Made by a program: the position numbers and the translations under genes. Below are positions 1,571 to 63,522 of a stretch of DNA of 64,000 nt, in pieces. Position 1 is the first letter of the stretch. Each line of letters begins with the position of its first letter. Source of the stretch: Cetorhinus maximus (taxonomy: Eukaryota); assembly GCF_964194155.1 (NCBI RefSeq), contig NC_135907.1:21204001-21268000 (forward strand), in the 5' to 3' direction. Under the pieces are notes generated by a model, which was not told the origin of the DNA, ran no database searches, and saw nothing but the letters and a program-made list of their open reading frames with translations.

Positions 1571-3468
1571 TCAGTCACACTCCCCCAGGGTGAGCTTGTC
1601 AAACAGGTACTCTCCCATGCCATTCTCAGGGGCTCCCAGTCTCTTCAGGTTGGTGATGTGATCTCCAAGCTTCTTGATCATCTTCACTTGCTCATCCAAG
1701 TAGTGAGTCTCCAGGAAGTCACAAAGCTGGAACAGAAAAACTAAGTGAGCCTTGGAGACAGGATTGCAGTGCAGAAGACAAGCGACAACATCCAGTTAAA
1801 ATTGGTGTGGTTCCTTTTATTGGATAAAGCACAAGTGACACTTCCTAGGATAGTATTGAATTAATAATGTTCTCCAACAGAAGATAGAGGCAGAAGTTTG
1901 CCAAGACTTGGGTACAGTTATACTCTAGGTCAGCTGGAAGACATGGCCCATCGAAAGAGACCAATACTCAAGTGAATTGTAACAAAGCTATTGGTGGTTT
2001 TGCAGCATTTTGAATAAGACTGCAAGGACATATTCATCTTCTAGCAACAGTGTCAAATCAGGAAATCTCATCCTGAGAATCAAAGCATCAGGAACTTACA
2101 TGAGGGTCAGTGTTCCCAGAGGAGAGCTTGTGCAGATCCAGCAGACTCTGGTTCACATTCTTCTCCATCTGCAGAGCTCTCTGCATTGCCTCCAGACCAT
2201 TGCCCCACTCATCCTGCTCTGGTTTCTGAGGAAAAAAATATCAAAACCACAGAAAAACATGAAGTGAATTGAAGACTGCAACAGCCTCAAGGGCTTTTGC
2301 CCAAAGCAATGGATTCCATGCAAAGCAGTGTAACAGGGAGGGGACTATTCCATGTCAGTGATTAAATTATAGGCAACAGCACAAACACTCATTATCTTAA
2401 AGACCACCTCCAAGTGAGTGAATCAATGATGACTTAATCTCTAGAGAAGAGAGACATTCAATATATTGATGGACCATCAATTCCAGAATGAAAGTTTTTT
2501 TGCAAAGGAATTGCTGTTTTAGATTTGAAATTTAAGCTCTTCTCCAAAGCCCACCACCACCATCCACTAAACAATACAAGTCAAAGAAGCTTATTCAAAG
2601 AAGTCAGAAAGGATACCTTGACATCCTCCAGGATGATCCGGCCTCCACGCTTATTCTGGAATTTCATCAGTTTCTCAGCGTGTTCCCGTTCCCCATGTGA
2701 CTGCTCCTTGAAGAACTCAGCAAAGTGACGCAGGGCAACATCATCCCGGTCAAAGTAAAAGGACTGCAGAGAGAACAGAAGTTAAACTGCAATAAAATTG
2801 AATTTCAGCATCTACAATTGCAAGTGATCTCATTACTGAGAAAATATCATGAAGTGCCAACTTTAGTTTATACATTTGGAGCAGTCAACAATTCTACTAA
2901 ATGTTGAATATTCACTTTATTCATATTAGAATGAGTGACTGAATTTAGTCATTAGGGGACTCAATCAGCTGGAAAGACAAGTCTTCAGCCTAGCCTACTA
3001 TCTGCAGGTGAGTGAAATTACTACTGATTCCAGGTGTAAGAGCAGGAATAAGAGCAAATTCACCAAGTTCATGCTGCAGCAAGTGTATAACCAACAGTAA
3101 ACTATTCTCAGGTTAACCTAGCCAACATATGATTAATTACAATCACATACTTAAAACATCCACACTTTTAAAAGTGACCTGAATTTGGAGAATCCTACAG
3201 TCAAATCCATACCCTTACAACTAGTGGCAAACTAGAAGTACAGGAATTGGTTCCCATTTAAAGTTTAAGCCCCCCACATATGGCAACTAGGAAGCATATA
3301 TCCTTCTAAGTAAAGGCTAACTTAAGAGATAGAAGTCAGTTACAGAGAGTGAAGAAGATTGCATACCATGGAGAGGTAAATATAGGAGGAATAGAGCTCC
3401 AAGTTGATCTGCTTGTTAACAGCATCCTCACAGTCCTTGTGGTAGTTCTGACATACTTGAGAAGCCAT
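1571..3468 (-). CDS. Ferritin subunit (M/heavy-B-like), array copy 1, 176 aa
   Basis: Exons 3468-3367, 2763-2617, 2225-2100, 1726-1571 (102/147/126/156 bp; GT-AG, phase 0; canonical vertebrate ferritin layout). [42 protein letters not shown]...QSHGEREH.../[10 protein letters not shown]...[12 protein letters not shown]...[15 protein letters not shown] at 1426-1421. Confidence 0.96.
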
Positions 3469-3913
3469 CTTAATTTCTATTGAGTTTAGAGGATCACAAA
3501 AGTCTACCAACTAGACTTACCCACTCTAACTGCTGTGGTAGTAAGGAACAACATATTTAAACACATGGACAACCCAGCATTTACATAACAGATAATGAGT
3601 GACAGTTATTGGTAGCCAATCAAAACTAACTTGCCTCAAGCAACCAATCCACAAACTTATTAATTAATGAATTGAGCATTGGATGAGCCAATCAGAGCTT
3701 TGAAAGTAATTTTATCTGATTACTTACTAACAAGATCCCTTAGACCTCCCTTAAAAATATTTGGATTAAGATGTCTTGAACTTAAAATACTGAGCAGCAC
3801 CTTTCTGCTTGCAAATCAGTGACTTTAGGAATTCAGCTGAATTAGTGAGAAAACTAGAGACTTGATTTCTTATTGTAGGTGACTGTAGCCTCAATGCAAT
3901 ATCCAGAGATTAG

Positions 3914-4366
3914 GAGGTGTCAGCTGTGGCTCAGTTCATAGCACCCTCGCCTTTGAATCAGAGGGTTGTGGGTTCATGTCCCACTCCGGGAAACCAAGAA
4001 CTGTGATTGTACTCAAAAGAGTTGCAATCTGTGACTGTTAATAACTCAAAAGAGTTTCAATTGTATTGAGGTGTCAGCTGTGGCTCAGTCCATAGCACCC
4101 TCACCTTTGAATCAGAGGGTTGTGGGTTCATGTCCCACTCCCAGAAAACCAAGAACTGTGATTGTACTCGAAAGAAGTTGCAATCTGTGACTGTTGATAA
4201 CTCGAAAGAGTTTCCAGAGATTAGGAGGTGTCAGCTGTGGCTCAGCTCATAGCACCCTCACCTTTGAATCAGAGGGTTGTGGGTTCATGTCCCACTCCTG
4301 GAAACCAAGAACTGTGATTGTACTCAAAAGAGTTGCAATCTGTGACTGTTGATAACTCGAAAGAGT
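3914..4366 (+). repeat. Three tandem copies of a ~143-bp tRNA-headed SINE-like module
   Basis: Units start at 3914, 4068 and 4225; degenerate A box (TGGCTCAGT) and B box (GGTTCATGTCC); tail contains ACTC(G/A)AAAGAGT twice. Confidence 0.85.
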
Positions 4367-60592: not shown

Positions 60593-61592
60593 GCTGTGGG
60601 CCTGGAGTTACATGTTGACCAGATTTCCTTCCCTAGAGGGAATTAGTGACATCAGATGGGCTTTAATAAAAATTGTTGACTGTTTCATGGCACCATTGCT
60701 GACACCACCTTTCAGCTTCTTTATTAAAGAAATTTATATTCCAATTTGCTGTGTTGGGATTTGAACCTATATCCCAAGTGATTAGCTTGGCTGCTGGATT
60801 ATTAGTCCAGTAACATTACCACTACTCCATCTCCTCCAAAAGTTTGGAGGATTGAGTGCAAGAAAATATTTCTTATCTTAAACCTAGAGTTTCTGTGATT
60901 TGATTATCTGACCTAGGAATTCTGCAATTTGCTCATCCATGACATTGTGAAGTACAGCCCTTGGAGAATAGGGGTGCAGGCAGCAGTTAAACAATTGCCA
61001 TCCTGCTTAGAAAGGCAGGTTTAAAAAGATGGTTAATGCTTTACTATGTTTACAGAGCTAGAGAGAGAAAAACAGCTTTAGCAACAGTGAAAGGTGTGTG
61101 ATAGACAAATACAGAGACACCTCAGTTGTACATCTTCCTTCTCCTGTCTTGGTGGATGCAAGTCTGAAGCAGATACTCTCCATGCTTACAAGGAGCAAGT
61201 AAAGACATGAATTCAGTGCCCCCTTTCCTCCCCCATTATGCAACTTTGTAAGGAAACTCCATTGTAGCAGAAATTAACAGGTGAAGATTGCAGAAACATT
61301 TTAGAAATCTCCTACAGGCTCCTGAATCAAAGTTGCAAGATGAGGGAATCAGGTTTTGGAAGCTGGGGTGCAGACAGCAGGGAAAATGAATACTTAAGGC
61401 AAGTTTTAATGGGGTCAGATGTCAGACAGCTAGGAATCATGATTCAAATAATCAAATCAGCTTCTGAATTATACAAAAACAAAAATCAGTTCAATGATAA
61501 ATATTTTTATTTCCAAATACAGGAACAGCTCTAGAACTGCAAATTATTTGATCACACATCATTCTATATATGATGGAAATGGATAGAGATTG

Positions 61593-63522
61593 TCAATGCA
61601 GGGTGAGCTTGTCAAACAGGTACTCTCCCATGCCTTTCTCAGGGGCTCCCAGTCTCTTCAGGTTGGTGATGTGATCTCCAAGCTTCTTGATCATCTTCAC
61701 TTGCTCATCCAAGTAGTGAGTCTCCAGGAAGTCACAAAGCTGGAAACAAGGCAAGAGAAATTAGTGAGTATTATTAGCATGGATCTTCTCCAGAAGAGAA
61801 TTACCTTCATTTTCTCCCCCTCCCCAGGATGGTGGTAAGTGTAATGCACATGGTGATGTGCAGATTTAGCCAGAGTTACCCACAAGTAGCAAGTCAATTC
61901 CATTAAACTGGGAGTGAACTTTAGAAATATTGATGGCTCAGAATGGGACAGTTTAGTGATTCAGGTCTACAATGTAGAAGGCTTTCGCTTAATGCAAAAT
62001 AAATCCATGTGTGTAACGTAAACTCATCGAATTCTGTCAGTGAATGGCCGATACCAACATCACTAACACCTGGAGGGAGGAAGAAATAAATATGGAGCTT
62101 ACATGAGGGTCAGTGTTCCCCAAGGAGAGCTTGTGCAGATCCAGCAGACTCTGGTTCACATCCTTCTCCATTTGCAGAGCTCTCTGCATTGCCTCCAGAC
62201 CATTGCCCCACTCATCCTTCTCTGGTTTCTGAAAGGGGAAGAGAAGTCTTGTTAGTGTTATTGGGAGTGGAAAGTCCAAGGGGCGTTACAATTTAGAAGT
62301 AACAGAAGTTTGTCTGTGCACACGAAGAACAGTGTTATGACACAGTTTGTAAAGGCAGAGTTACTTAAAGTCCCAGAGGAAAACTTGAAACTAATAAACA
62401 TACCAATTGAAAATATAGGTAGGGATGCAGCTCTGAAGTCAGAAATGGACCAAGCCACCAGAGGTTTTTATACAAAATTAAAAATGTCTACAAATTACCA
62501 CCATAACCTTTAAACAAATCCTCAAATTAACCACTTCTAGGTAAATCTAGATCCAGGCAACAATAACCCATAGACTTAGACATCAGGCAAAGCACATTCT
62601 ATTTTACTAATTCAAAAAGCCTTTCAATTTGGTTGCTTCAGAGTTGGAGGCTTACAGGCAGCTTAGATCTCATATGCCTCTGACCCACAAAACTGTATAT
62701 ATCCAGCCTTCCCTTTGAATGTAAATTCTCATTGTATCACCAGGCCCTTTGAACTCCATCTCTTCTAACAAAACTTTCATAGTACCAATTTTATTAGTAA
62801 TAAACAGATTGCTTGGTGTCTCCTAGCTAGGTGCAAGATTTCACCTCGTCTTTGAATGGTTTATTCAACAAAATGGAATTGTACTCTTTACCTTATTGTT
62901 TAAGGTCTCAAAACTACTGTACATCAAAGCACCCAGACTAGCTGGCTTTAATCCAATTGACAGACCCTACTACAAGTCCAATGAACACAAGATCAGGTCA
63001 TTGACTCTACTTTGCAATTTTTAGCCAAAAACTTCCATTCCCAATTATTAGTTCTGGTTTAAATCCTCAAGAGGACTTCACCCATCTATGCTTACATCTT
63101 TGGTCCACATTCAACACCAGTTTCCTATGCAAATACCACAAAGCCTGGGTTAAGAATTTAGTGCAAAGAAAATAGTTCTGAATATCCAGATTTGGATCAG
63201 GCCATTCAAAGATCAACATCACACCAATTCATCCTGTAACTGTCCACACCTTGCACCAACAATTTTAAAGCATTAATCTCAATGGATTGAGAATTTATGG
63301 TGTAACAGCAAGACAATAAACTATTTGAAATAACAAGGAACTTCACAGAAGATGCCTTCCAAGTTAGAATCCAACCTTGACATCCTCCAGGATGACCCGG
63401 CCTCCACGTTTATTCTGGAATTTCATCAGTTTCTCAGCGTGTTCCCGTTCCTCATGCGACTGCTCCTTGAAGAACTCAGCAAAGTGACGCAGGGCAACAT
63501 CATCCCGGTTAAAGTAAAAGGA
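61593..63522 (-). CDS. Ferritin subunit, copy 10, partial (exons 2-4; exon 1 outside window)
   Basis: Exons 63522-63376, 62228-62103, 61739-61593; close paralog of copy 8; ends LTLH*. Confidence 0.93.
62333..62974. mobile_element. Probable solo LTR in intron 2 of copy 10
   Basis: Near-identical to 47981-48624. Confidence 0.45.

Follow-up and report, generated by a model that had tools for sequence, protein, structure and literature searches.

Two recent publications, cited here from the accessible parts of their text, describe large tandem expansions of ferritin genes in sharks. Yang et al. (PNAS 2026, PMC13214024) find a raised FTH1b copy number in sharks generally and 59 tandem copies in the Greenland shark, arranged in clusters of 55 and 4. 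Those authors place an FTL gene beside FTH1a, link the expansion to ferroptosis and longevity, and note that high copy numbers also occur in sharks without long life. Sahm et al. (10.1101/2024.09.09.611499) count 155 to 179 ferritin copies in the Greenland shark, ~80% of them in three clusters and >85% of full length, and report the three clusters to be syntenic between Greenland and white sharks. The window analyzed here, 64,000 nucleotides of Cetorhinus maximus (G000:C30:21204001-21268000, on the ~26-Mb C30 of a 3.99-Gb genome), holds ten genes of a corresponding ferritin array. Because the expansion is published, the array as such is not new. What appears to be new beside it, and was not met in the accessible parts of that literature, is the loss of the iron-responsive element (IRE), a homogenization limited to the exons, and an altered binding site for NCOA4. 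With modest confidence, the array is read as a dosage-amplified ferritin family of M/FTH1b type that lacks the IRE, serves oocytes, and undergoes exon-limited concerted evolution with birth and death of copies.

The Greenland shark FTH1b genes (PMC13214024) resemble those described here in forming four-exon tandem clusters, one large and one small, on one small chromosome, with some copies comprised of exons 3 and 4 only; there are 59 of them, compared to 37 units, 17 of them intact, in C. maximus. As is characteristic of the shark FTH1b expansion, the C. maximus genes are multicopy, tandem, four-exon genes of an elasmobranch-wide clade, a comparison drawn from 12 shark species and one sawfish. 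Sahm et al. (10.1101/2024.09.09.611499) name the copies FTL or FTH1 by their likeness to human genes, in contrast to the M/FTH1b assignment proposed here. In the accessible main text of PMC13214024, the word "ovary" is absent, and IRE loss, exon-limited conversion, and retrocopies were not met there, without a search for them by name; the 2025 preprint of this paper makes no mention of ferritin. The accessible main text of 10.1101/2024.09.09.611499 lacks "iron," "IRE," and "gene conversion" as whole words. Searches that barely targeted the IRE and did not address conversion by name gave no publication in which either IRE loss or gene conversion is described for shark ferritins.

Vertebrate M-type ferritins (the teleost middle subunit and the amphibian heavy chain B or higher subunit) have the same four-exon structure as the array genes, which differ in being IRE-less and multicopy and in carrying the signature Asp15, Lys19, and Met141. 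In mammals, FTH1 is accompanied by dispersed processed pseudogenes, and Fthl17 forms a small germline-expressed tandem family. The mammalian FTH1 retrocopies and Fthl17 are intronless, in contrast to the shark array copies, which keep three introns and arose by DNA duplication. An egg ferritin with a 5' untranslated region (UTR) free of an IRE, as in the array, is the snail yolk ferritin (PMC10799875); according to the accessible text, it is a single, secreted protein of the digestive gland with a signal peptide and a 42-residue insert, neither of which is found in the shark copies. The snail protein is an analogy and not a relative by descent.

With the exons of copy 1 as the query, ten four-exon ferritin genes are found in the window, all on the minus strand, between positions 1571 and 63522. 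These exons match those of every other copy at 87 to 100% identity, and the ten-gene match is therefore not due to chance. The exons of copies 1 to 9 measure 102, 147, 126, and 147 to 156 nucleotides (nt), the introns are of the GT-AG type throughout, no copy contains an internal stop codon, and the proteins have 173 or 176 residues; the start codons of neighboring copies lie 4.4 to 10.8 kb apart. An earlier interpretation made from the letters of the window (the sequence-only reading) had described ten intact, intron-containing ferritin genes on one strand, which agrees with these data. It had also seen copy 10 running past the right edge: exon 1 of this copy lies ~1.1 kb beyond it, at G000:C30:21269130-21269231, and the gene is intact. 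The copy 4 protein is identical to the annotated protein P0014, which carries PF00210; these genes are therefore already annotated automatically. The Ferritin domain, the length of 173 to 176 residues, and the lack of an N-terminal extension or signal peptide in the translations are features of cytosolic ferritins. The traits of processed pseudogenes are absent from the window copies, each of which has three GT-AG introns, and a retro-origin of the array is ruled out by the introns kept.

On C30, the array extends from 21.077 to 21.275 Mb (198 kb) in both orientations and contains 37 units, 22 of which have four exons and 17 of which are intact, while 20 are broken or partial. It reaches ~127 kb to the left of the window and stops ~7 kb to the right, so that the suggestion of M/heavy-B-type genes in a larger tandem array that extends further proves correct. 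One argument offered for further copies, a duplication between positions 1 to 1400 and 6520 to 7960, is based on a real match (35-1728 versus 6605-8299, 83%), but this connects exon 4 and the downstream flank of copy 1 with those of copy 2 and does not by itself indicate a further copy. Within the array, the window stands out as the cleanest part, with ten of ten copies intact, compared to 7 among the other 27 units. Outlying clusters are located on C2 (7 units, 2 intact) and C15 (4 units, none intact). Both clusters (G000:C2:191116698-191149031 and C15, 39604353-39617136) are intron-containing array segments relocated to other chromosomes as DNA; the UTRs of the C2 cluster resemble the cassette classes of the window, and the C15 cluster is wholly broken.

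The array copies lack the 5' UTR IRE typical of canonical ferritins regulated by iron regulatory proteins (IRPs). Rfam models detect no IRE in the window at an E value of ≤1 (a single snoRNA match, E of 0.13, is due to chance) and none at the gathering score in the 140 kb to the left of the window or in the C2 and C15 clusters. When 400 nt of upstream sequence are scanned loosely for hairpins, an IRE is found in none of 38 array copies, one of which has a partial exon 1 only, compared to both of two control genes; these scans refer to the upstream DNA covered, and a distant noncoding first exon could lie outside it. A 22-mer of the IRE has two matches in the genome, each preceding a single-copy ferritin gene. 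One is a paralog 45 kb from the window (42.6 bits), and the other is a four-exon gene on C9 which fits the role of FTH1 (FTH1a). Given the well-established control by IRPs, translation in the absence of an IRE would no longer depend on cytosolic iron. In 31 of 38 copies, a TATA motif that is part of a conserved promoter block is located within 110 nt of the start codon. The promoter of copies 1 and 2 (window 3469-3890 and 10918-11340) differs from this block, as does that of two units immediately to the left of the window, and two promoter types therefore drive near-identical proteins.

The exons of the array are far more alike than the DNA around them. Between copies 1 and 2 and copies 3 to 10, no noncoding base of introns or flanks can be aligned in any of 80 comparisons, and global noncoding identity (0.66 to 0.77) is close to that of shuffled sequence (0.69). 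The coding distance in the same comparisons is 2.5 to 5.8% (94 to 97.5% identical exons), with changes at 1 to 5 of 52 to 60 fourfold sites. Unalignable introns and flanks next to near-identical exons suggest exon-limited gene conversion. Among copies 3 to 10, the nearest partner switches from intron to intron: copy 7 resembles copies 3 and 5 upstream and in intron 1, copies 4 and 6 in intron 2, and copy 5 in intron 3. Conversion and crossing-over would thus take place inside exons, the sole parts still homologous. The five sequence classes of the sequence-only reading (1/2, 3/5, 4/6, 7/9, and 8/10) hold in noncoding DNA; in coding DNA, this is true of 4/6, 7/9, and 8/10 and fails for 1/2 and 3/5, which are no closer than 1/3 (coding distances of 3.5% for 1/2, 3.1% for 3/5, and 2.5% for 1/3, compared to 1.2% for 4/6). 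Recent duplication as the cause of the exon similarity is ruled out by the unalignable introns, and strong selection on synonymous sites is ruled out by the near-neutral variants.

Distinct variants among the 19 intact copies comprise 105.5 nonsynonymous and 44.5 synonymous changes, that is, a nonsynonymous share of 70%, compared to a neutral expectation of 74% (P = 0.40); the share in retrocopies is 66% (Fisher P = 0.36 against the intact copies). The mean ratio of nonsynonymous to synonymous polymorphism (pN/pS) among intact copies is 0.58, and the corresponding ratio of substitution rates (dN/dS) is 0.58 to 0.84 depending on the method, so that a value near 1, named by the sequence-only reading as one half of a refuting result, is nearly reached. 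The description of the genes as a "diversifying" five-class functional repertoire is not upheld by exons that are homogenized and variants that cannot be distinguished from neutral ones or from those of retrocopies. These data would fit selection on summed output with drift of the single copies, rather than five classes maintained by selection.

The nearest proteins are shark models with automatic names such as heavy chain A/B-like, higher subunit-like, oocyte isoform-like, and middle subunit-like. In a quick tree of 41 of 72 listed homologues (21 fused, partial, invertebrate, or redundant models and 10 near-redundant rows were left out), the array groups with white shark proteins in its own clade, with support of 89 to 95 in the SH-like approximate likelihood ratio test (SH-aLRT). 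Since it forms its own clade and the separate C9 gene fits the role, the array is not the FTH1 (FTH1a) orthologue. The array, the IRE-bearing neighbor, and a coelacanth protein meet in an unresolved fork (support of 86) in this tree, which contains no teleost, amphibian, or mammalian references. Multiple copies of the same clade occur in 12 shark species, covering all shark orders sampled, and in one sawfish; paralogs group by lineage. Across 38 other elasmobranch proteins, 148 to 165 of the 172 residues of the array consensus are retained, compared to 131 of 172 residues shared with the IRE neighbor. The clade signature of Asp15, Lys19, and Met141 is replaced in the IRE genes by Ala, Arg, and Ala or Ser.

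The ferroxidase center is formed by Glu24, Tyr31, Glu58, Glu59, His62, Glu104, and Gln138, which we take to be equivalent to human Glu27, Tyr34, Glu61, Glu62, His65, Glu107, and Gln141. All seven ligands are present in 15 of the 19 intact copies and in 7 of the 10 window copies; a ligand is altered in the other 4 intact copies, with copies 4 and 6 lacking Glu24 and copy 1 having Gly in place of Glu58. In copy 4, codons 23 to 25 (window 25998-26006, minus strand) read Arg-Arg-Phe in place of Leu-Glu-Leu, as does the same stretch of copy 6 (37223-37231), which probably arose from a compensated -1/+1 shift in exon 1. Arg24 does not occur in any of the 38 proteins examined from other elasmobranchs. 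Residue equivalences follow the usual human numbering and the residue spacing in PMC11076521. In human FTH1, a cleft with Ala19, Asn22, and Arg23 binds NCOA4, and the mutations A19Y, N22A, and R23A abolish binding; Lys and Asp are not among the mutants in the accessible part of that study (PMC11076521). The IRE neighbor shows Ala15, Asn18, and Arg19 at the same spacing. Among 57 array-type proteins, the position equivalent to Arg23 (position 19) is never Arg and is Lys in 52, and that equivalent to Ala19 (position 15) is Asp in 52. This change predicts weaker ferritinophagy, a prediction weakened by the aliphatic arm that Lys keeps and by the Ser of the shark C9 gene at the position of Asn22. 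Because of this Ser, shark NCOA4 may differ from the human protein.

Intronless copies elsewhere in the genome give a record of past transcription. A 22-mer from exon 4 has 55 matches: 29 on C30, 6 and 2 in the outlying clusters, and 18 dispersed. All seven dispersed copies examined, which were found by an exon 2 search and include 5 of the 18, are intronless; a run of A and an AATAAA signal are each present in six of them. Six trace to array 3' UTRs of several classes, one of them to the copy 8/10 type (86 to 87%). Intronless retrocopies that are inherited imply transcription in the germline or early embryo, and their origin from several 3' UTR classes implies that several array copies were once transcribed. 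The IRE neighbor has no close dispersed copy among 40 scored of 51 candidates, and the C9 gene has five dispersed matches, counted irrespective of introns. Per gene, the array is unexceptional as a source of retrocopies; summed, it is the main source. One retrocopy, G000:C2:157530531-157531061, differs from the array consensus by 35 changes and yet remains open over its full length, free of stops and gaps.

Five runs are available by species label, four probable DNA runs of one sample and one probable RNA run (X5, tissue unknown). X5 contains spliced contigs that belong to the IRE gene and one array-type contig (depth of ~50) with a 3' end that corresponds to a copy outside the window; genes cannot be ranked by expression from contig depth. 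At the exon 4 edge of the array-type contig, 8 loose letters match the end of exon 3 at 6 of 8 positions, too few to call a splice. In the Greenland shark, the largest ferritin cluster is ovary specific in expression according to the accessible text of 10.1101/2024.09.09.611499, and this cluster is inferred to be orthologous to the C30 array. Ferritin mRNA is abundant in the ovaries of fish and other vertebrates, as stated in the accessible part of PMC1488847. The ovary result, borrowed from another shark, and the retrocopies make expression of the array in oocytes likely.

A multistep scheme can be proposed for the oocyte family. Transcription would replace translational control by IRPs, so that bulk ferritin could be made independently of cytosolic iron, most likely in oocytes. 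Unequal crossing-over would add and remove cassettes of one and two genes, and exon-confined gene conversion would hold the coding sequence near one consensus as the introns diverge. Selection would act on summed output and leave single copies to drift almost neutrally and often to die. The products would coassemble into 24-mers, which would serve the egg and embryo as an iron store and as a buffer against oxidative stress. Of the two functions considered by the sequence-only reading, very high tissue-specific dosage is the one that fits the evidence best.

Several observations weigh against the oocyte family. Retrocopies require transcription in the germline or early embryo and not in the oocyte specifically, they number ~1 per intact array gene compared to 5 for the C9 gene, and no convincing target-site duplications were found around the seven; 13 of the 18 dispersed exon 4 matches lie outside the examined set. 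No transcript in X5 can be tied to any of the ten window copies. Part of the Greenland shark FTH1b copies are transcribed in fin and blood (PMC13214024, accessible text), and expression is therefore not strictly ovarian; the orthology that transfers the ovary result rests on inference. The quick tree leaves most inner branches open. Amino acid variants slightly avoid deeply conserved columns, which make up 99 of 172 columns and hold 40 of 95 variants (P = 0.0025), an avoidance not significantly above that of retrocopies (Fisher P = 0.39).

A bolder form of the oocyte reading is put forward tentatively. Here, the array would belong to an ancient, dedicated elasmobranch oocyte ferritin subfamily released from both arms of vertebrate ferritin control, translation being insensitive to iron without the IRE and the cage resisting ferritinophagy through its altered NCOA4 cleft (Asp15 and Lys19), and maintained in tens of copies by exon-limited conversion. 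Partnered by an IRE-less L-like array, it would form a maternal iron store of H/L-like composition, with an evolutionary history separate from that of its mammalian counterpart.

An alternative is somatic protection, the hypothesis of Yang et al. (PMC13214024), in which the extra copies buffer iron in tissues rich in polyunsaturated lipids and tune ferroptosis. The fin and blood transcripts noted above agree with it, as do the array-type contig in X5 and the complete set of ferroxidase ligands in most intact copies. This explanation is nevertheless unlikely: the sole tissue-specific statement found in the accessible literature concerns the ovary (10.1101/2024.09.09.611499), high copy numbers occur in sharks without long life (PMC13214024), and IRE loss would remove the iron-responsive control expected of a somatic buffer. 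It is likewise improbable that the locus is simply unstable and its copies mostly dispensable, with one or a few that matter and the rest by-products of unequal crossing-over kept open only by conversion. The 20 broken or partial units of 37, the near-neutral variation, and the ligand changes in 4 of 19 intact copies would be expected in such a locus. The occurrence of multicopy families of this clade in every shark order sampled, a copy number raised in sharks generally (PMC13214024, accessible text), the conserved promoter block, and retrocopies from several 3' UTR classes would not.

A selected repertoire, with five subunit classes of differing chemistry held apart by selection to give tuned heteropolymers, has a low probability. 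Copies 4 and 6 both lack Glu24 while their frames are otherwise intact, a condition reminiscent of the ferroxidase-dead L chain. Copies 7 and 9 share five substitutions, and an L-like second array 5.3 Mb away makes mixed 24-mers possible at that level. Against a repertoire, shared variants are no richer in nonsynonymous change than singletons (43.5:18.5 versus 62:26, nonsynonymous to synonymous), the shared changes lie in very recent duplicates such as 4/6, Arg24 does not recur in other elasmobranchs, and the classes are mosaic.

The depth of contigs, a rough measure taken for window 18001-27000 only (9 kb), was compared in runs X1, X3, and X4, which derive from a single sample, possibly that of the assembly itself. 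In X1, contigs specific to copies 3 and 4 (six exact or near-exact of eight listed) have depths of 12.3 to 15.5, compared to 8.3 to 11.3 for the single-copy IRE locus (eight listed), and the half depth proposed beforehand as the sign of an assembly artifact is not seen. The corresponding ranges are 64 to 199 versus 50 to 117 in X3 and 58 to 176 versus 38 to 81, with one repeat contig at 160, in X4. That haplotypes were joined in tandem and inflated the copy number, as the 95.6 to 97.6% identity of pairs 4/6, 7/9, and 8/10 over 3.5 to 5 kb might suggest, is very improbable given the X1 depth, X3 and X4 ranges that overlap or exceed the baseline, the absence of N gaps from the 364 kb around the array, other pairs that differ far beyond allele level, and the equivalent expansion in independent assemblies of another shark (10.1101/2024.09.09.611499 and PMC13214024, accessible text).

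If the copies are IRE-less germline genes across sharks, the published tie of the expansion to ferroptosis and Greenland shark longevity weakens, and the question shifts to the iron stocking of large yolky eggs. Among vertebrates, the locus also offers an unusually clear example of concerted evolution limited to exons, with unalignable introns between exons of almost no synonymous divergence.

The positions of the genes, all on the minus strand, are as follows, with exons listed from 1 to 4. Copy 1 (1571-3468; 176 residues) has exons at 3367-3468, 2617-2763, 2100-2225, and 1571-1726. Copy 2 (8142-10917; 176 residues) is built from 10816-10917, 10093-10239, 9592-9717, and 8142-8297, and copy 3 (19090-21703; 176 residues) is built from 21602-21703, 20309-20455, 19578-19703, and 19090-19245. 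Copies 4 (23902-26072) and 6 (35105-37297), also of 176 residues, consist of 25971-26072, 25072-25218, 24422-24547, and 23902-24057 and of 37196-37297, 36299-36445, 35636-35761, and 35105-35260, respectively. The remaining copies encode 173 residues: copy 5 (30214-32804; exons 32703-32804, 31433-31579, 30708-30833, and 30214-30360), copy 7 (40954-43507; 43406-43507, 42142-42288, 41471-41596, and 40954-41100), copy 8 (47241-50880; 50779-50880, 49026-49172, 47751-47876, and 47241-47387), copy 9 (53716-56270; 56169-56270, 54904-55050, 54233-54358, and 53716-53862), and copy 10, with exons 2 to 4 in the window (61593-63522; 63376-63522, 62103-62228, and 61593-61739). A two-gene cassette of ~11 to 14 kb is repeated four times between 18162 and 64000, as (3,4), (5,6), (7,8), and (9,10). 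Identity over 3.5 to 5 kb is 95.6% for copies 4 and 6, 96.3% for 7 and 9, 97.6% for 8 and 10, and 89.1% for 3 and 5. A G-rich 25-bp minisatellite separates cassettes at 27431-28333 (35 units), 38814-39615 (32 units), and 52412-52494 (3 units).

To the right of the array, single ferritin genes of divergent sequence are found, four in number and including the IRE-bearing one. The gene at G000:C30:21299756-21310350 (plus strand) has four exons, the last of which occurs with an A-tail in X5, and an in-frame upstream ATG that adds a stretch of ~58 residues, enriched in Arg, Leu, Gly, and Ser and similar to a mitochondrial presequence. Mammalian mitochondrial ferritin is intronless, and for this reason the shark gene could represent an independent origin of mitochondrial ferritin. 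The genes at G000:C30:21283462-21292182 (minus strand) and 21345846-21365420 (plus strand) are single divergent ferritins without an IRE, in which the frames are open, the introns are large, and ferroxidase or channel residues are altered. The second ferritin array (G000:C30:15844970-15910538) contains ~10 units, several of them broken, of another subfamily with Lys59 and Glu57; three units were checked, and all are intact. Lys59 and Glu57 presumably recall the ferroxidase-dead L chain. Visual inspection of the 150 nt upstream of the start codons in this array shows no IRE, and the genome-wide IRE pattern has no match there. C30 also bears RUVBL, Bcl-2-family, and glycogen synthase genes 1.4 to 4.7 Mb from the first array; the first two we take to be RUVBL2 and BAX, and the third may be GYS1 or GYS2. 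RUVBL2, BAX, and a glycogen synthase gene are neighbors of human FTL. Upstream of copies 1 and 2, tandem triplications are present at window 3902-4366 (155-bp unit) and 11496-12300 (267-bp unit), the former of which resembles a short interspersed repeat.

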